Shown: positions 2,672 to 38,890, counted from the first letter of the stretch. The stretch is DNA of 64,000 nt from an uncultured Dehalococcoidales bacterium (GCA_964547375.1 CAZJMW010000001.1:2319-66318), one strand, 5' to 3'. A program made the numbers and translations. The notes: generated by a model from the letters alone, not told the origin.

Positions 2672-3586
2672 ATGAAAGAGGATATAGAAGGCTTTTTAAA
2701 TTACCTTACTGTAGAAAAAGGCTTTTCGGGAAACACAATCGAGGCCTATCGCAATGATTTAACACAGCTTTTGGAATTTGCGGAAAAAGAAACGCTGAAT
2801 AAAAGCATCATTCCGGCCTGGGATAATTTCAGCCGTCAGAGCATGTTAGCCTATGTATTGAATCTGAAGGAACGAAATTATGCCGTTACCACCGTTGCCC
2901 GTAAAGTGGCGGCCGCCAAGTCGTTTTTCGGTTTCATGGTTTCCGAAGGAAAGCTCAGGGAAGACCCGACAGAGAACGTAAGTTCCCCCAAAGTGGGCAA
3001 GCCGTTACCGGATGCTCTTTCCATCAGCCAGGTCAGGCATTTGATTGAACAACCTGCCAAAATCAATACTCCGGATGCCAAACGCGACCGGTCAATGCTT
3101 GAGCTGCTTTATGCCAGCGGTATGCGAGTGAGCGAACTTACAGCATTGAACCTGGGTGATATCGACATCAGTAATTGTTTTGTGCGTTGTTTCGGAAAAG
3201 GCAGCAAGGAGAGAATGGTTCCCATTTATCCGCAGGCTGCCAAAATAGTCGATGAATATATAAGGGAAGTCAGGCCTTTATGGGCTCATCGGGATACTGA
3301 AAAGGCTTTGTTTTTAAACCAGCGCGGTGAGCGTTTAACAAGGCAGGGGCTTTGGCAGATTTTAAAGAATTATGCCAGGGAGGCCGGGCTTGATAAACAG
3401 GTTACTCCGCATACCTTAAGACATAGTTTTGCCACGCACATGTTAAGCGGGGGGGCAGACCTCAGGTCGGTTCAAGAGTTACTGGGTCATGCCAATATAT
3501 CCACCACCCAGATATATACTCACCTGACATCGGAGCATGTCAGGAACACCTATGAGAAAGCTCATCCAAGAGCCAAGCAATCTTAG
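2672..3586 (+). CDS. xerD: Tyrosine site-specific recombinase XerC/XerD family
   Basis: SD GAGGAGG before the ATG. N-terminal SAM-like domain (NTIEAYRNDL). Catalytic region reads LRHSFATHMLSGGADLRSVQELLGHANISTTQIYTHL. The C-terminal HPRA resembles XerD. XerC versus XerD cannot be settled from sequence alone. Confidence 0.9.
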   Translation: MKEDIEGFLNYLTVEKGFSGNTIEAYRNDLTQLLEFAEKETLNKSIIPAWDNFSRQSMLAYVLNLKERNYAVTTVARKVAAAKSFFGFMVSEGKLREDPTENVSSPKVGKPLPDALSISQVRHLIEQPAKINTPDAKRDRSMLELLYASGMRVSELTALNLGDIDISNCFVRCFGKGSKERMVPIYPQAAKIVDEYIREVRPLWAHRDTEKALFLNQRGERLTRQGLWQILKNYAREAGLDKQVTPHTLRHSFATHMLSGGADLRSVQELLGHANISTTQIYTHLTSEHVRNTYEKAHPRAKQS

Positions 3587-14832: not shown

Positions 14833-14867
14833 GTCGTTGCGAATCCCGAGTATCGGGATGAAGCATC
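14833..14867 (+). repeat. R1 hairpin element, copy 1 (GTCGTTGCGA-ATCCCGA-gta-TCGGGAT-GAAGCA)
   Basis: Starts 11 nt after the thrC stop. Matches copies at 15690, 16762 (rc) and 18151 (rc). Confidence 0.85.
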
Positions 14868-14875
14868 GGAAAAAC

Positions 14876-15036
14876 GGCTTCCCTTGGGGGAAGCTGTTGA
14901 ACGAAGTGAAACTGATGAGGGATAATACAAATCGACCCTCATCCGTCATTTAGATATGCCTGTCCGCCATCCCGATATAATCGGGACGTCTTTCAGGCTT
15001 CCCTTGGGGGAAGTCCCGACCCGTCGGGAATGAAGG
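14876..15036. repeat. Composite of truncated MITE-like units and hairpin modules
   Basis: Contains GGCTTCCCTTGGGGGAAG twice (14876, 14996), the inverted pair ACTGATGAGGG (14911) / CCCTCATCCGT (14936), and hairpins CCCGATATAATCGGG and TCCCGACCCGTCGGGA. It is the reverse complement of the units at 16513 and 17967. Confidence 0.85.
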
Positions 15037-15094
15037 ATATTGAACAGTCATATATTACTATTAAATCCAAAATAGAAAATATTCGGGGGTCAAA

Positions 15095-15682
15095 ATGGCA
15101 AAGAAAGTAGTAGATAACGTCGGTACCTTTTATCAGCATTATCCGCGCATTGCGCTGGTGGTCACCGCAGCATCGGGCGGCAAGGAAAACGCCATGACGA
15201 TTGCCTGGCATATGCCGATGTCAAAGGACCCGCCGTTAATCGCTTTTGTTACCGGAACATCCCATTTTACCTATAAACTAATCAAGGAAAGCGGTGAATT
15301 TGCCATTAACCTGATGCCGGAAACACATTCCGAAATCGTTGCTGCTATCGGCGGCAGCAAGGGTGAGGAATGCGATAAGTTTGCAACCTACGGCATTGCA
15401 AAGGATAAATCCGTAAAAACCTCAGCGCCCATACTGGCGGATGCCTATACCGCTTTCGAATGCAAGGTGGTGGATGAAAAGGTTTACGACGGGCACAGCA
15501 TGATTATCGGCGAAGTAGTGGCTACCCATGTTCAGGAAGGATGTTTGTGGGATGACGGGACTGTAAATCTGGAAAAAGTCTTTCCGGTATTATATATGGG
15601 AAGCGAGCAGTATATCAGTGTCGAGAAGGCCAATGTGCACACCCTGAGAAGGGATGTTTACGCCAAAGAATTGAAGTTGTAA
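15095..15682 (+). CDS. Flavin reductase-like FMN-binding protein
   Basis: 195 aa. Flavin reductase domain signature around MTIAWHMPMSKDPPLIAFV. Confidence 0.75.
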   Translation: MAKKVVDNVGTFYQHYPRIALVVTAASGGKENAMTIAWHMPMSKDPPLIAFVTGTSHFTYKLIKESGEFAINLMPETHSEIVAAIGGSKGEECDKFATYGIAKDKSVKTSAPILADAYTAFECKVVDEKVYDGHSMIIGEVVATHVQEGCLWDDGTVNLEKVFPVLYMGSEQYISVEKANVHTLRRDVYAKELKL

Positions 15683-15689
15683 GCCGATT

Positions 15690-15733
15690 CGTCGTTGCGA
15701 GTCCCGCTTTATCGGGACGAAGCAATCTCTACC
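15690..15733 (+). repeat. R1 hairpin element, copy 2
   Basis: CGTCGTTGCGAGTCCCGCTTTATCGGGACGAAGCAATCTCTACC. Starts 7 nt after the flavin reductase stop. Confidence 0.85.
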
Positions 15734-15942
15734 TGTGGGTATCGTCTAGTCTATGCTTTTTTATTGATTATCGGTAATGGATTTCATGTCTGGTGTGGAG
15801 CGAGGTAATCAAGAGGCTTTGTAGTGATTGCTTTGCCTTCCTTTCAGGTATGGACTCGCAAAGACAGTATTAAAAGGCTTGCCGAATCACTGCTGCGGTG
15901 TTAATCTAATAGCATCAAAATAATAACAAAGAGGATAGTGAA

Positions 15943-16509
15943 TTGTTCGACCAGGATAAAATAAAAAGAGCTGTTGAAGAAATTATCGTTGCCATTGGAG
16001 AAGACCCGAACCGAGAGGGTTTGCTTGAAACGCCGCGGCGTTTTGCCGAGATGTATACCGAGCTTTTCATGGGTATGGATATGGACCCTGTCGAGGAGCT
16101 GAAGGTCGGCTACGAACTGGGGCACCGCGAAATGGTCATACTCAAGGACATTCCCTTTTATTCGATGTGCGAACATCATCTTTTGCCGTTTTACGGCATA
16201 GTCCACATCGGCTACATTCCCAATAAAGAGGGCAGGGTGGTAGGTATCAGCAAGCTGGCGAGGGTAGTGGAAATCATCGCCAAGCGTCCGCAAATACAGG
16301 AGCGCATGGCAACAGATATCGCCGATTCCATTGTCAAGGGATTAGCTCCGGATGGTGTCGGTGTCGTCATTCAGGCCGAGCACATGTGCATGACTATGCG
16401 CGGCATCAAGAAGCCGGGTGCCAGCGTCATTACCTCTGCATTGCGTGGAACTTTTAGAAGCCGCGCCGACAGCCGCGCCGAGTTCTTCTCGCTGATTCAC
16501 GTGAAGTAG
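15943..16509 (+). CDS. folE: GTP cyclohydrolase I
   Basis: SMCEHHLLPF motif and QERMT region. TTG start with AGAGGA upstream. Confidence 0.9.
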   Translation: MFDQDKIKRAVEEIIVAIGEDPNREGLLETPRRFAEMYTELFMGMDMDPVEELKVGYELGHREMVILKDIPFYSMCEHHLLPFYGIVHIGYIPNKEGRVVGISKLARVVEIIAKRPQIQERMATDIADSIVKGLAPDGVGVVIQAEHMCMTMRGIKKPGASVITSALRGTFRSRADSRAEFFSLIHVK

Positions 16510-16512
16510 ACG

Positions 16513-16620
16513 CCCTCATCAGTCTAGCATTAATGCTCGACAGCTTCCCCCAAGGGAAGCCTGAAAAACGTCTCGATTATATCGGGGTGGCAGACAGATA
16601 TATCTGGATGACGGATGAGG
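16513..16620. repeat. MITE-like unit (~108 bp) with terminal inverted repeats, complete copy
   Basis: Starts with CCCTCATCAGT and ends with ACGGATGAGG. Internal hairpins are GCTTCCCCCAAGGGAAGC and a CGATTATATCG-centred hairpin. Begins 3 nt after the folE stop (16510-16512). Confidence 0.85.
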
Positions 16621-16761
16621 AAAACCAACCGTCTTTGCGAAATTTTCCGCTACATTGTCTTTCTGAGGCAAAGACGAAGAATCTATATAAATCAGAGAAG
16701 AAAATTGAAGCAATCTCTACCGTTAATATTGTCTGGCTACCGTATTATTAATTAGTATCAA

Positions 16762-16810
16762 AGAGATTGCCGCGTCGTCCCGCCGATACGGGACTTCTCG
16801 CAACGACGAC
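16762..16810 (-). repeat. R1 hairpin element, copy 3 (reverse orientation)
   Basis: The reverse complement reads CGTCGTTGCGAGAAGTCCCGTATCGGCGGGACGACGCGGCAATCTCT. Lies 3 nt beyond the yjbQ stop on the minus strand. Confidence 0.8.
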
Positions 16811-16813
16811 TTA

Positions 16814-17230
16814 TTACTCCCCCATCACCTGCACCACCACATCCCTCTTGCGCGGGCGGTTATCGAAGTCTATAAGCACGATTTGCTGCCACGTGCCGAG
16901 TACCATTTTGAAGTTTTCGAATGGGATGACCAATGATGCACCCAGCAGTGACGCCCTGATATGTGAATAGCCGTTGCCGTCTCCCCATGTTTCGTTGTGG
17001 GCATAGGGGATGCCCTTGGGAGCAATCCTCTAGAACGCCTCTTTGATATCTGCCACCAGCCCCGGTTCGTACTCGATGGTAGTTATCCCGGCGGTGGAGC
17101 CGGTAACGAAGACGGTCACGATGCCGCTTTTGAGGTTGGATTTAGACAATATCGCTTCCACATGGTGCGTGATGTTTACGACATCGCACTCGCCGTTGGT
17201 TTTAAGACTGATGGTTTCGGTTATTAGCAT
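16814..17230 (-). pseudogene. yjbQ: YjbQ/UPF0047 family gene (secondary thiamine-phosphate synthase family) with one in-frame TAG at 17030-17032
   Basis: The track stops at 66 aa (...DIKEAF*). Reading through the TAG in the same frame gives RIAPKGIPYAHNETWGDGNGYSHIRASLLGASLVIPFENFKMVLGTWQQIVLIDFDNRPRKRDVVVQVMGE then TAA TAA. That is the conserved C-terminal half of the family. Total length is 139 codons, normal for the family. Confidence 0.85.
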
Positions 17231-17399
17231 AGAGAGCCTCCTTGATAGTGATATAGATATTATAGGCTATTTAGAATTCAGAATCATGAAATAAATATTC
17301 TCTGCTATAACGTCTCAGGATTGAAAAATAATTTACATAAATATAATAAAGTTCAAATAGGAGTATACTGGTATGTATATAGGAGAATGTAAAAAATAA

Positions 17400-17552
17400 A
17401 TGATAAATAAAAACTTTTCCAAATCGACACGAATACACATCCGCAATGAAAAGGCGCGCATTCGCAGGACTGTCGGCGACCCGAAAGAACAGGAAAAATT
17501 AATCAACGACCTGTATCTACAATCCCGGATGAACTCCGGCAATGCCTTATAG
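17400..17552 (+). CDS. Possible small basic protein (50 aa), hypothetical
   Basis: Below the track threshold. Reads MINKNFSKSTRIHIRNEKARIRRTVGDPKEQEKLINDLYLQSRMNSGNAL. GGAG lies 14 nt upstream, which is rather far. The 128-aa minus ORF covering it is not protein-like. Confidence 0.3.
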   Translation: MINKNFSKSTRIHIRNEKARIRRTVGDPKEQEKLINDLYLQSRMNSGNAL

Positions 17553-17603
17553 GAACACTTTTTGTAGCGGCAATATCCGGTAAATATTAAAGAGCGGTGA
17601 ATT

Positions 17604-17780
17604 ATGAAATTGTGTGTAAAGAAAACATGGTGCGGAAACTGCAAGATGCTGGTCGGCGGCGAAGAAAAGAAAGTTGACAACACGACCCAAATCTTCTGTT
17701 TAAAATGCAAACAACCCATTTGGCAGCATGAAAGCGCAAGCTGGAAAAGTATGCGCCAGAACGTCTTGAAAAAAGATTAG
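17604..17780 (+). CDS. Small zinc-ribbon protein (58 aa), hypothetical
   Basis: Below the track threshold. Reads MKLCVKKTWCGNCKMLVGGEEKKVDNTTQIFCLKCKQPIWQHESASWKSMRQNVLKKD, with two CxxC pairs. Confidence 0.4.
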   Translation: MKLCVKKTWCGNCKMLVGGEEKKVDNTTQIFCLKCKQPIWQHESASWKSMRQNVLKKD

Positions 17781-17966
17781 GGATAAAACCCTATTGCCTT
17801 TGCAAAATTAAAGACGACAGATAAAAGAATATTCTGACAGGTTTAGCGATGACCCGGTTTATCTTCCGATAATTTAAGATAGGCAGGGTCTTCGTAGTTT
17901 AGGCTGTTCTTTTTAATCCGAAGTCCCGATTTACCGGGACTGACGGAAGAGGGTGACTTGTATTAT

Positions 17967-18073
17967 CCCTCATCAGTCTCGCCTTTTTGCTCGACAGCTT
18001 CCCCCAAGGGAAGCCGTTTTAAGTCCCGACCTGTCGGGATGGCAGACAGATATATTTGGATGACTGATGAGGG
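17967..18073. repeat. MITE-like unit (107 bp) with perfect 11-bp terminal inverted repeats, complete copy
   Basis: CCCTCATCAGT (17967-17977) ... ACTGATGAGGG (18063-18073). Internal hairpins are GCTTCCCCCAAGGGAAGC and GTCCCGACCTGTCGGGA. Confidence 0.9.
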
Positions 18074-18150: not shown

Positions 18151-18194
18151 GGTAGAGATTGCTTCATCCCGATACATCGGGATTCGCAACGACA
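18151..18194 (-). repeat. R1 hairpin element, copy 4 (reverse orientation)
   Basis: The reverse complement reads TGTCGTTGCGAATCCCGATGTATCGGGATGAAGCAATCTCTACC. Lies 19 nt beyond the GIY-YIG gene stop. Confidence 0.85.
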
Positions 18195-18213: not shown

Positions 18214-18507
18214 TTACCCGTCTTTATCCAGATATGAAGAAATTATCTTATCGATGCGGCTGTCGTCACGTATCAAACACTCTTTTTGTGCTTTCGTTAA
18301 CTGCTTGATTCTGTGTTCTACCACAAGCGCCAGGTTCCTGCTGCCTACTTTCTTTTGCAATTCCAGGGTAACCGGTCTTCTGCAACGGACATATTTTGAC
18401 CCGTTGCCGCTTTGATGTTCCGCAAAGCGGCGTGCAACATCGGTAGTGATGCCTGTGTACAGGCTTTCGTCTTTGCACCTGATAAGGTATATATACCAAT
18501 CCGGCAT
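18214..18507 (-). CDS. GIY-YIG nuclease superfamily protein (UPF0213/YhbQ-like)
   Basis: 97 aa with WYIYLIRCKDESLYTGITTDVARRFAEH. The start ATG overlaps the tex stop as TAATG. Confidence 0.8.
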   Translation of the reverse strand: MPDWYIYLIRCKDESLYTGITTDVARRFAEHQSGNGSKYVRCRRPVTLELQKKVGSRNLALVVEHRIKQLTKAQKECLIRDDSRIDKIISSYLDKDG

Positions 18508-20675
18508 TAACTGCTTCCCGCTTCCGCCTGTACCCGTGAAAGGGCGTCGGTCTTCATCGAAAGGGAAATGCGCCTGCGCTGCGTATCCACCGACATCACG
18601 GTTACGCTTACTTTTTGATTAACGCTGACGATATCGGCAGGGTTATTTACAAACTTATCGGACAGTTCGCTGATATGAACCAGCCCGTCCTGGTGCACGC
18701 CGATATCGACAAATGCTCCGAAGTTGGTGACGTTGGTAACGATACCGGCCATAATCATACCGGGGGCCAGTTGCTCTATCGATTTGATGCCTGCCGCAAA
18801 TGCGGTTGCCTCGAACTGCTTGCGCGGGTCGCGTCCCGGCTTGGCAAGCTCGGCAAGGATATCCTGTAGAGTCGGCAGACCGTAATCCTCTTCGATATAG
18901 TTATCGAGCCTGATTTGAAGCCTGAGGTCGTCACGGCGCATCAGGTCGGTTATACTGCAAGACATGTCTTTGGCCATTCTATCGACGATATGGTAGCTCT
19001 CAGGATGCACTGCGCTGGCATCGAGAGGGTTCTTGGCGTCATCGATGCGCAGGAATCCCGCCGCCAGCTCGAAGGCCTTCGGGCCTAACCTCGGCACTTT
19101 CTTTAGTTCGGCGCGGCTGCGGAAAGGGCCGTTCTCATTTCTGTAGGCGATAACATTTTTAGCCAGCGTCGGTCCCAGACCGGATACATAAGTGAGCAGT
19201 TGTTGGCTGGCGGTGTTTACCTTTACACCGACCTCGTTGACGCAGCTCATGACGGTTTCATCGAGGTTATTCTTAAGCTTCCCCTGGTCGACATCATGCT
19301 GGTATTGCCCGACACCGATGGACTTGGGGTCTATTTTAACCAGTTCCGCCAGCGGGTCTAACAACCTGCGTCCGATGGATACCGCGCCGCGCACGGTAAT
19401 ATCGTGGTTGGGGAATTCTTCACGCGCAACAGCGGAGGCCGAATAAATCGATGCCCCGCTTTCGTTTACCATGATAACCGGGATTTCACCCGGCAGATTT
19501 AAACTCCTGATAAACTCCTCGGTTTCCCTGCCGGCAGTGCCGTTCCCGATGGCAATAGCCTTGATATCGTATTTTTTAGATAAATCGATAATTGTCTTTT
19601 CGGCTTCTTTAGCCTTTGCCGCCGATTGCTCGATAAAGATAACGGTATGGTCGAGTAGCTTGCCCTGCGGGTCGAGGCAGACTACCTTGCAGCCGGTACG
19701 GTAACCGGGGTCGATGGCAAGGATGGCGCGCGGCCCCAACGGCGGGGCCATCAGCGTATCACGCAGGTTGCGGACAAAGACACGCAGCGCCTCGTCGTCG
19801 GCACGCTCTTTAGCCTGCTGGCGGATATCGGTTTCAATCGACGGCGCAAGCAACCTGGTATAGCTATCTTCCGCAGCTAAGATTACCTGTGCGGATGTTT
19901 CACCCGTTCCTTTGACAAAGTTACGGTGTAATATGGATAACGCTTTGTCCTGAGGCGGCCTGATTTTGAGTTTCAACAAGCCCTCGTTCTCACCGCGAAA
20001 CATGGCAAGCAGGCGATGGCTGGGTACACGGTTAACCGGTTCCTGCCAGTCGAAGTAATCCCGGTACTTGATAGCTTCGTTGTCTTTATCCTTCACCACG
20101 GCGGATTGGATAACGCCTTCCATGTAGAACAGGCGGCGAATACCTTGACGTGTCGTGGCGTCTTCATTTATCCACTCGGCAATGATATCGCGCGCACCTG
20201 ATAAAGCGTCATCGACTGAGGCGACGCCTTTTTCGTCGTTAATATATGCCAGGGCTTCATGGGCCGGGTCTAAAATCTCCTGAGCCAGTATCAAAACGGC
20301 AAGGGGTTCCAATCCCTTTTCTTTAGCCATAGTGGCACGGGTGCGCCGCTTGGGGCGGTAGGGCAGGTAAATATCCTCAAGCGTGTTCATTGTTTCAGCC
20401 GCTTCGACTGAAGCGCGGAGTTCATCGGTAAGCACATTCTGTTCCGTAAGTGATTCCAGGATTACCTTGCGCCTGTCATCAAGGGCTTCCAGGCGCGCCA
20501 GTTCGTCACGTATTTGGCCGATAACAACTTCATCGAGCGAGCCGGTTTTTTCCTTGCGGTAGCGCGCGATGAACGGTATGGTGGCTCCTTCGGAAAGCAG
20601 GGATTGTACTGATTCTACCTGTTTAGTCGAAACCTTTGCTTTTTGGGCTATGGTTTGAATATGTTTTTCATTCAT
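18507..20675 (-). CDS. tex: Tex-like transcription accessory protein (YqgF/HHH/S1 domains)
   Basis: N-terminal IPFIARYRKE motif and C-terminal S1 domain (GAFVDIGVHQDGLVHISEL). I prefer ATG 20675 (MNEKHIQTIA). Confidence 0.9.
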   Translation of the reverse strand: MNEKHIQTIAQKAKVSTKQVESVQSLLSEGATIPFIARYRKEKTGSLDEVVIGQIRDELARLEALDDRRKVILESLTEQNVLTDELRASVEAAETMNTLEDIYLPYRPKRRTRATMAKEKGLEPLAVLILAQEILDPAHEALAYINDEKGVASVDDALSGARDIIAEWINEDATTRQGIRRLFYMEGVIQSAVVKDKDNEAIKYRDYFDWQEPVNRVPSHRLLAMFRGENEGLLKLKIRPPQDKALSILHRNFVKGTGETSAQVILAAEDSYTRLLAPSIETDIRQQAKERADDEALRVFVRNLRDTLMAPPLGPRAILAIDPGYRTGCKVVCLDPQGKLLDHTVIFIEQSAAKAKEAEKTIIDLSKKYDIKAIAIGNGTAGRETEEFIRSLNLPGEIPVIMVNESGASIYSASAVAREEFPNHDITVRGAVSIGRRLLDPLAELVKIDPKSIGVGQYQHDVDQGKLKNNLDETVMSCVNEVGVKVNTASQQLLTYVSGLGPTLAKNVIAYRNENGPFRSRAELKKVPRLGPKAFELAAGFLRIDDAKNPLDASAVHPESYHIVDRMAKDMSCSITDLMRRDDLRLQIRLDNYIEEDYGLPTLQDILAELAKPGRDPRKQFEATAFAAGIKSIEQLAPGMIMAGIVTNVTNFGAFVDIGVHQDGLVHISELSDKFVNNPADIVSVNQKVSVTVMSVDTQRRRISLSMKTDALSRVQAEAGSS

Positions 20676-20806
20676 TATAGTTTTACTCCGGTTTGGGGAT
20701 AATCTAATTGTACTACACATGATGATATTTTGCTTATCAGAACTCCGGGGGTTGATATCTTAACTACCTTCTATTTTGTCTACGGATCGATATCGCATAA
20801 ATTCTG

Positions 20807-31434: not shown

Positions 31435-31546
31435 TTGTTTCCCTTTCAAGTTTTCTGCTGTCCTTCTGGTACTGTTTTGTTACTATTCTCTTTTAAATCC
31501 CTCTCAATCTCCCTGTGCACAAAAGAGAGAATCCTATACTTTATAA

Positions 31547-31650
31547 TGTCTTGCTGGAGTCCCGACTTGTCGGGACGAAGTATCTGGGGTTGGTGAGGAT
31601 TACTCCTCCCCCAGGATTCTTCAGTCGTTTCACTCCTTCCAGAATGACAG
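31547..31650. repeat. Family-3 inverted-repeat element (104 bp) in the carA-carB spacer
   Basis: TGTCTTGCTGGAG-TCCCGACTTGTCGGGA-CGAAG...CTGGGG..CCCCAG...CCAGAATGACAG. Related to the copy at 38728-38837. Confidence 0.8.
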
Positions 31651-31658
31651 TTCCCTTC

Positions 31659-38727: not shown

Positions 38728-38837
38728 CTGTCATCATGGAGTCCCGACTCGTCGGGACGATGAATCTGGGGGGTGGGGATATAATACCACCCTTCCCGGG
38801 ATACTTCGTCCGCCTGCGGCGTCCTCCAGCAAGACAG
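38728..38837. repeat. Family-3 inverted-repeat element (110 bp)
   Basis: CTGTCATCATGGAG-TCCCGACTCGTCGGGA-CGATG...CTGGGG..CCCGGG...CTCCAGCAAGACAG. The track ORF 38648..38866 is an artefact of this element. Confidence 0.8.
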
Positions 38838-38890
38838 TTTAAATGCCTATGATTTGAATCTGACAAATCGGTATTTCGCCATGACGTCCT

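Follow-up and report, generated by a model that had tools for sequence, protein, structure and literature searches.

A modular palindromic repeat of Dehalococcoidales and Clostridia with half-units that bracket genes of a DUF559 subfamily

Few non-coding features of bacterial genomes are as common as repetitive extragenic palindrome (REP)-type repeats. Here we describe what is very probably a repeat of this kind in a 64,000-nucleotide stretch of DNA (the window) from an uncultured Dehalococcoidales bacterium (GCA_964547375.1 CAZJMW010000001.1:2319-66318), and its link to genes of the DUF559 family elsewhere. The genes that flank the units in the window are ordinary and comprise, in the Pfam scan, homoserine dehydrogenase, a pyridoxal phosphate enzyme (threonine-synthase-like), flavin reductase, folE, a YjbQ homologue, two small open reading frames (ORFs), a 97-aa GIY-YIG protein and Tex. 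The folE ORF is a GTP cyclohydrolase I by Pfam and ends with a TAG at 16507-16509; one unit begins 3 nt past this stop, as had been read in an initial annotation made from the sequence alone. All window ORFs of at least 150 aa were scanned against Pfam and none encoded a transposase, a REP-associated tyrosine transposase (RAYT), a Y1 transposase or a DUF559 protein, which agrees with the earlier statement that the window holds no transposase. With DUF559 as query, tblastn gave no match in the window.

The building block of the repeat is a half-unit of ~47 nt, which joins an 8-nt box (CCCTCATC), a tagged hairpin of the form (A/C)GTC-stem-G(A/C)CA and a fixed hairpin, GCTTCCC-CCAA-GGGAAGC. The general form of the module is CCCTCATC, (A/C)GTC-[variable stem-loop]-G(A/C)CA, then GCTTCCCCCAAGGGAAGCC, and that of the fixed G+C hairpin is GCTTCCC-N4-GGGAAGC; the stem of the tagged hairpin is free in sequence and keeps its pairing. 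Two half-units in inverted orientation, joined through an 'outer' linker, make up the ~107-bp unit, whose right half repeats the left in inverted and diverged form (…CCTTCCCC-N-GGGGAAGG-TGGC-[hairpin]-GACGGATGAGGG). Half-units alternate in orientation with two kinds of linker, 'outer' and 'inner', and the second phase (…GATGAGGG-14 nt-CCCTCATC…, where GATGAGGG is the box as it reads on the folded strand) is also found in the window. A covariance model of the half-unit (R1), run with the filters off, gave 8 matches, all within 14877-18073 and none elsewhere in the 64 kb (Table 1). The sequence CCCTCATCAGT, with at most one mismatch, was found 6 times in the window against 0.73 expected, and the 18-nt hairpin GCTTCCCCCAAGGGAAGC 4 times against 0 expected.

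Table 1. Units, half-units and linkers of the repeat in the window, with the R1 matches on which they rest.
Position	Strand	Feature	Basis
14877..14921	-	Solo 'right-end' type half-unit; minus-strand reading CCCTCATCAGT-TTCACTTCGTTCAA-CAGCTTCCCCCAAGGGAAGC	R1, 61.6 bits, E=1.8e-23, folded (+) strand
14922..14935	.	14-nt 'inner' linker ATAATACAAATCGA (reverse complement TCGATTTGTATTAT) between head-to-head half-units	Inverted-repeat table
14936..15040	-	Complete variant unit CCTTCAT-TCCCGACGGGTCGGGA-CTTCCCCCAAGGGAAGCC-TGAAAGAC-GTCCCGATTATATCGGGAT-GGCGGACAGGCATATCTAAATGACGGATGAGGG	R1, 22.1 bits (14997-15036) and 12 bits (14936-14967)
16513..16620	+	Complete unit B	R1, 60.8 bits (16513-16560) and 7 bits (16582-16621)
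17920..17953	+	'Left-end' type half-unit remnant GTCCCGATTTACCGGGAC-TGACGGAAGAGGG	Weak R1 match, 6.4 bits (17897-17953)
17954..17966	.	13-nt inner linker TGACTTGTATTAT, from the remnant to unit A	Resemblance to 14922-14935 and to Dehalococcoidia linkers
17967..18073	+	Complete unit A, ends CCCTCATCAGT / ACTGATGAGGG	R1, 60.6 bits (17967-18014) and 14.7 bits (18021-18073)

Units A and B had both been recognised in the initial annotation as complete copies, and both stand; the perfect 11-bp inverted ends reported for unit A are 11/11 complementary, and in the right end of unit B (ACGGATGAGG) one position is mismatched and the final G is missing. The remnant and linker directly upstream of unit A (17920-17966) had been missed, and what had been taken for two truncated tandem copies at 14876-15036 is instead a half-unit, a 14-nt linker and a complete variant unit on the minus strand. 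In this variant unit the first hairpin is TCCCGACGGGTCGGGA, the end box is degenerate (CCTTCAT) and a 77-nt arm is 90% complementary to unit B. The box GGCAGACAGATATAT, described as conserved in every unit, is present in the two plus-strand units and in those two only.

The pairing of the variable stem is under selection. In an alignment of 73 half-units, both sides change in 6 of this stem's 7 pairs. The count of double-change cells is 137, whereas shuffles give 44.6 and none of 500 reaches 137, and the covariation score is 0.308 (0.100 in shuffles). Slid-register controls collapse, and the fixed hairpin is 97% paired. The stems measure 4-9 bp and carry loops mostly of 3 nt (TTC 35, TGC 18, TAC 11) or 4 nt, with no A·T rule. 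On the CCCTCATC strand of 159 distinct halves, stem mismatches are T·C/C·T in 151 cases and G·A/A·G in 15 (binomial p = 2e-29), and the loops of the tagged hairpin read TNC. The complementary strand has tandem G·A pairs and GNA/GNNA loops, features that are stabilising in single strands. The mismatch skew together with the TNC loops therefore indicates that the folded strand, as DNA or RNA, reads 5'-GGCTTCCC…GGGAAGC-TGTC[stem]GAC-TGATGAGGG-3'. When whole units were folded as DNA, both strands folded better than shuffles (z -3 to -5.7; -4.7/-5.7 for unit A and -3.1/-3.4 for the variant unit). That the units are non-coding, repeated and structured, as first described, is thus borne out.

The family was then followed in other genomes by a scan of GTDB species genomes with the exact 18-nt hairpin, in 8-kb pieces, which listed at least 116 loci; counts of loci given below refer to these. 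A box C[CT][CT]TC[AT]TC lies within 50 nt upstream in 109 of 131 listed hairpin matches (chance ~0.5% each) and is exactly CCCTCATC in 94 of the 131. The 159 distinct halves from these loci read CGTC…GCCA in 54 cases and AGTC…GACA in 99. The hosts are Oscillospiraceae, Lachnospiraceae, Ruminococcus, Acutalibacteraceae, Pseudoflavonifractor isolates, Dehalococcoidia, Anaerolineaceae and Brevefilum, so that the half-unit family spans genomes of Clostridia, Dehalococcoidia and Anaerolineae, that is, gut Clostridia and Chloroflexota. Half-units occur singly, in at least 35 head-to-head close pairs, in at least 17 tail-to-tail close pairs (the 107-bp phase) and in arrays, with alternating orientation at loci L009, L023 and L103. 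The 14-nt linker is conserved in Dehalococcoidia, where a sequence near-identical to that of the window, TCGATTTATATTAT, joins units at L009, L077 and L104. Several metagenome-assembled genomes (MAGs) gave 5-10 loci each among the listed matches. At least 8 came from the Clostridia MAG RGIG5933, which suggests a high copy number there; an array of at least eight units, spaced about 105-115 bp apart, lies at L023 3960-5030 in the same MAG. Such units break metagenome assemblies and generate spurious ORFs, with peptides such as …PLGEA…LTDEG.

A plasmid collection gave no match to the units, and in a phage collection five unannotated gut 'phage' contigs matched half-units only. Literature searches on strings of the repeat sequence returned nothing relevant, and no report of a miniature inverted-repeat transposable element (MITE) in Dehalococcoidia was found. 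From the hairpin downstream, a 1.8-kb contig binned as Treponema (L045) matches an Oscillospiraceae contig (L052) almost exactly and was probably mis-binned; occurrence of the family in Spirochaetes is doubtful for this reason.

The genes next to the units pointed to a single protein family. Among 128 ORFs at most 200 nt from units at the listed loci, the sole family seen three times or more was a ~120-aa protein of PF04480 (DUF559), for which the nearest solved structure is 3hrl; this gene, not that of a known transposase, is also the only one found recurrently between inverted ends. In 6 of 6 further homologue clusters, picked by protein similarity alone, the gene is bracketed by inverted half-units. 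The resulting cassette is ~0.5 kb long. A ~380-bp DUF559 gene, for a protein of Vsr-like, restriction-endonuclease fold, replaces the inner linker, and the half-units form ~47-nt inverted ends. In the canonical cassettes (L131, L132/133, L136-139, L145) the upstream end reads GCCTTCCC…GGGAAGG-TGGC-[hairpin]-GACGGATGAGGG, with the start codon 0-9 nt further on, and the downstream end reads CCCTCATCAGTC-[hairpin]-AGCTTCCCCCAAGGGAAGCC, with the stop codon inside the hairpin and, in many cases, TTAA next. At L134/135 and L144 the box (GGAGGGA/TCCCTC) and the fixed hairpin are variants, with unchanged layout and left/right asymmetry, the left ends of canonical and variant cassettes being CC..GG-TGGC-..GACGGA and the right ends GC..GC-TGTC-..GACTGA. 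The box is even read in frame, as the C-terminal peptide, in 83 of the 120 closest homologues (PHQSA in 29, SL[SH][QR] in 54). In the window, 14877-14995 on the minus strand and 17920-18014 have exactly the end-linker-end layout of the cassette, with a linker of 13-14 nt where the gene would be. One cassette (P0028) was found at a single plsY…leuS site in all 10 listed places, from many samples, which recalls the single-copy habit of RAYTs (PMC5581495).

The half-units as inverted ends of a DUF559 cassette are a new lead, and the closest class of repeats, the CGTC-tagged REPs, is already described. A link between DUF559 and repeats was not found in the open-access literature, subscription literature being outside the search. 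One search gave more than 7,800 DUF559 homologues at E<=1e-20, and we know of no established role for the family. Now that a DUF559 subfamily and a structured repeat have repeatedly been found physically linked, a function can be tested for both of these orphans.

Some DUF559 loci are more complex. At L136-L139 (about 720-1000), a half-unit with the first ~60 DUF559 codons is repeated in tandem upstream of the intact gene, giving three 62-aa ORFs in L137, and two DUF559 cassettes are adjacent at L145 1-990. On the Sphingomonas parapaucimobilis plasmid NZ_CP155753.1 (L143 366-811) a DUF559 gene separates sufB from sufC and is flanked by a 33-nt inverted repeat, 88% complementary, with the hairpin CCCCTCCCC-TTCA-GGGGAGGGG and GGGGGTGGGG. 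DUF559 genes of Azospirillum, Sinorhizobium and Neisseria also adjoin palindromic repeats in related arrangements.

To follow the units between relatives, contigs were identified by the protein identity of the flavin reductase, which is 96% for L125, 88% for L126-128, 86% for L129 and 76% for L117. Homologues of this protein were found in Dehalococcoidales MAGs, with whose contigs the window is syntenic; an exact-protein look-up of the window flavin reductase found no record. The 3' end of folE reads TAG-acg-[108-bp unit]-aaaaccaac-cgtctttgcg in the window and TAG-cctttat-cgtctttgcg in L125, with flanks that are ~96% identical, so that the 120 nt containing unit B (16510-16629) correspond to 7 nt (cctttat) in L125. 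This is an empty site of the kind that had been named at the outset as a mark of mobility, and unit B is likewise absent from the folE site of L126, L129 and L117. The spacer between thrC and the flavin reductase gene holds 1.5 units in the window, whereas that of L125 has no unit and that of L117 a single incomplete one. At the site of unit A, L125 keeps the upstream remnant and the linker, followed by a different single half-unit and a T-run. Synteny between the window and L084 stops before the unit of L084. No target-site duplication, for which the initial annotation had proposed to look, flanks the window units or any of 26 complete-unit readings elsewhere (both strands counted). The differences in presence and absence are those expected of a non-autonomous repeat, mobile or recombining, with gain, loss and exchange of copies, and the units of the window mark fast-evolving spacers, one of them abutting the folE stop codon. 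Turnover without duplications is not what is expected of a conserved regulatory RNA, which had been named as the alternative if the units were conserved at orthologous positions; they are absent or replaced in L125, L126, L129 and L117. It also speaks against a classical MITE.

We are therefore highly confident that the units are a non-autonomous repeat of REP or bacterial interspersed mosaic element (BIME) type rather than a classical MITE or a conserved RNA. A composite REP/BIME-like structure had been offered at first as the second choice, and it is the better description: half-units occur singly, as head-to-head dimers with a fixed linker and in alternating arrays. The cognate gene missing from the window is probably not a transposase. 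Whether the DUF559 protein is the mobilising partner of these units is for us an evenly balanced question. In this case the nuclease would be encoded once or a few times per genome, outside the window, and would recognise the box and folded hairpins on one strand of each end. A nick made by it might start copying, or the recombination-mediated gain, loss or exchange of units, in trans, and the units would land in spacers after genes without target duplication. As a side-effect the fixed hairpin, often with its T's, may end or stabilise transcripts. Such a mechanism would parallel that of RAYTs and the hairpin-forming REP doublets (REPINs), with a different enzyme.

Several points weigh against a role of DUF559 in mobilisation. 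The gene is absent from the window and from ~15 Dehalococcoidia loci, and in Clostridia loci with canonical units (L012, L042, L043) the DUF559 genes have at most the half-unit upstream of them. The cleanest insertion, unit B, has as its ends those that in the cassette lie on the inside, next to the gene; a simple derivation of units as the cassette minus its gene does not predict this phase. The sampling was based on an exact 18-mer and 8-kb pieces. We know of no biochemical activity of DUF559 on such DNA. Finally, the association could be one-way, with a nuclease gene homing into pre-existing repeats.

This last possibility is the main rival of DUF559 as partner. DUF559 would then be a parasite, a free-standing homing-type gene that inserts in the middle of head-to-head dimers, the 'ends' of the cassette being its split target and the repeats spreading by other means. 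We consider this unlikely, although the gene does sit exactly at the position of the 13-14-nt linker of gene-less dimers, and tandem gene copies and repeated 5' gene fragments (L136-139, L145), like the Sphingomonas homologue wedged between two suf genes, are what such a gene might leave. The Vsr-like fold family also includes a proven homing endonuclease (PMC3239194, PMC3424549). This enzyme, I-Bth0305I (EDxHD motif), is a case of a Vsr-related fold used by a selfish element, but its gene lies in a group I intron within a phage gene (PMC3239194), whereas the DUF559 gene is free-standing between structured inverted repeats. A parasite is harder to reconcile with cassette P0028, which is fixed at one locus in many samples. 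The conserved asymmetry of the ends, and box variants that co-vary with gene subfamilies, suggest a long co-evolution of gene and ends, and the arrival of gene-less units such as unit B at new sites would be left unexplained.

If DUF559 is instead a partner, the consequences could reach further. To our knowledge, only the GTAG class of REPs has a known enzyme, the RAYT. The CGTC class was left without an enzyme in a 2013 survey (PMC3733652), in which CGTC-tagged REPs have a CGTC (or TGTC/CCTC) head and a CCA tail, an 8-9-bp stem starting with A·T pairs and a 4-5-nt loop, predominate as inverted dimers, lie after genes and have 'no dedicated transposase'. The half-units resemble them in the short palindrome with a tetranucleotide head and CCA-type tail (the 'left-end' half is CGTC-stem-GCCA), in stems that vary with pairing kept, in the predominance of inverted dimers and in an intergenic location, mostly after genes, with no target duplication or associated transposase known. 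They differ in that the tagged hairpin is the middle of a three-part module, with the box and the fixed hairpin on either side, in that the commoner half type is AGTC…GACA, and in stems of 4-9 bp with loops of 3-4 nt and no A·T rule at the stem base. Their hosts, Clostridia and Chloroflexota, were not in that survey, and they have a candidate partner gene in DUF559. We tentatively suggest that DUF559/Vsr-like nucleases may be the missing partners of a second class of REP-type repeats that includes the CGTC-tagged REPs, in a symbiosis resembling that of REPINs and RAYTs and built on a PD-(D/E)XK nuclease, with the window units as non-autonomous members. Such a class would extend to the Proteobacterial DUF559 genes that lie beside CCCTCCCC…GGGGAGGG and GGGTGGGG palindromes (Sphingomonas, Azospirillum, Sinorhizobium, Neisseria).

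A third explanation is that the repeats are REPs or REPINs in the strict sense, in which a RAYT or an IS200/IS605-type HUH tyrosine transposase, encoded elsewhere in the genome, acts on the hairpins as single-stranded DNA. The signature of folding on one strand, with GNA loops and G·A pairs, the lack of target duplication, the dimers and arrays and the REP-like location after genes (PMC3733652) are all as this would have it. Like REPINs (PMC3116915, PMC3337134, PMC5581495), the units are non-autonomous inverted hairpin doublets, and the partner gene is flanked by inverted units and can be single-copy and positionally stable (PMC5581495). The flanked gene, however, is a PD-(D/E)XK/Vsr-like DUF559 gene and not that of an HUH tyrosine transposase, the GTAG tag is absent, and the boxes are near-identical across the phyla in which the family occurs, whereas a REPIN family is confined to its lineage. 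A RAYT was found neither among the window ORFs of at least 150 aa nor between inverted copies in the listed loci, where the enclosed genes are tadA, mutL, tdk, uvrC and mnmE. The ends are symmetric inverted repeats, while those of IS200-type elements are recognised on a single strand, and CGTC-type REPs were reported without RAYT association (PMC3733652). A strict REPIN is thus rather improbable. The units also recall the BIMEs of enterobacteria and the neisserial intergenic mosaic elements (NIMEs) (PMC2817692) in the alternating orientation, the two unit types with conserved linkers, the array length that varies between strains and the location after genes. The sequences are unrelated to those of BIMEs and NIMEs, and the unit is longer, with two hairpins.

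The repeats might also be RNA elements selected by the host, such as an intrinsic terminator, a stabiliser of 3' ends or a translation-coupled regulator, copied by recombination. T-rich sequence does follow the fixed hairpin, with T at positions +2 to +4 in 115, 104 and 81 of 169 cases; 2 of the 4 fixed hairpins in the window pass a terminator scan, that of unit A being called terminator-like with its T-run, and units lie mostly after genes, unit B only 3 nt from a stop codon. No orientation bias was found with respect to flanking genes (63 same and 57 opposite overall, 7 and 14 for isolated halves, on crude ORF-based gene calls). It is the strand opposite the T-run that carries the stabilising mismatches and loops, conservation at orthologous sites is lacking, and no Rfam family matched the units, either at gathering scores or with E<=10 allowed. 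We rate a host RNA element as very improbable. A hammerhead ribozyme, suggested by CUGAUGAG, was rejected: there is no GAAA or stem II after the box, 'left-end' halves read CGGAUGA, and no Rfam family matched.

Least credible of all is the classical MITE of the initial annotation, an internally deleted insertion sequence (IS) mobilised in trans by a DDE transposase with the 11-bp terminal inverted repeats as its binding sites: the perfect ends of unit A, the ~107-bp size, the lack of coding capacity, the polymorphic insertion and a possible terminator effect are shared with bacterial MITEs such as the Correia elements, but the 'terminal repeats' are merely the outer 8-11 nt of a ~47-nt half-unit, half-units are autonomous modules found alone and in both phases, target-site duplication is absent, no transposase-bearing parent IS with these ends was found in ~0.9 Mb of listed loci, and compensatory change in internal stems would not be kept by a decaying deletion derivative. 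An autonomous element between inverted ends 0.6-3.5 kb apart was also looked for in the listed loci and rejected, only the housekeeping genes named above being enclosed.

The window and its relatives hold other palindromic repeats. A second family, ~180 bp long, is complete at 15691-15868 and 16630-16808 and has solo ends at 14833-14870 and 18151-18193; its structured, inverted ends of ~45 nt read GTCGTTGCGA(A/G)-TCCCG…CGGGA-(C/T)GAAGCAATCTCT … AGAGATTGC…TCGCAACGAC, and each resembles a CGTC-type REP with a nested hairpin. It is also found in the relatives L125 and L126, and in the thrC spacer the window has only its left end and L125 the whole. Copies of a third family, TGTC…GGAGTCCCGAC-N4-GTCGGGACGA-…ATCTGGGG…CCC(A/G)GGAT(T/A)CTTC…TCCAG(A/C)A(T/A)GACAG, lie at 31546-31652 and 38728-38839 and in spacers of L129, L125, L117, L027 and L030. 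A fourth, CCGTTCG…GAGCCTGTCGAACCATAACGG … ATCCTTCGACAAGCTCAGG(A/T)CGAACGG, at L117 6430-6560, L129 6021-6266 and L125 4085-4500, fills the folE or thrC spacers of relatives where the window has its units. These spacers are hot spots, with palindromic repeats of several unrelated kinds.

Among the neighbouring genes, that of the YjbQ/UPF0047 homologue on the minus strand (16814-17230) is interrupted in frame by a TAG at 17030-17032, where L125 has Glu (GAG), and is either a pseudogene or carries a sequence error; the protein is intact in the relatives (138 aa). The 97-aa GIY-YIG nuclease gene beside unit A overlaps the Tex stop codon by one base (18214-20720), and this Tex/GIY-YIG block downstream of yjbQ is replaced by other genes in L126, L129 and L117. 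The GIY-YIG gene was considered as a partner of the units and rejected, with a single weak homologue among the listed loci. Further upstream in the window, at 2672-3586, a XerC/XerD-type tyrosine recombinase (Phage_integrase with a SAM-like N-terminal domain) has housekeeping genes around it; its probable role is the resolution of chromosome dimers.

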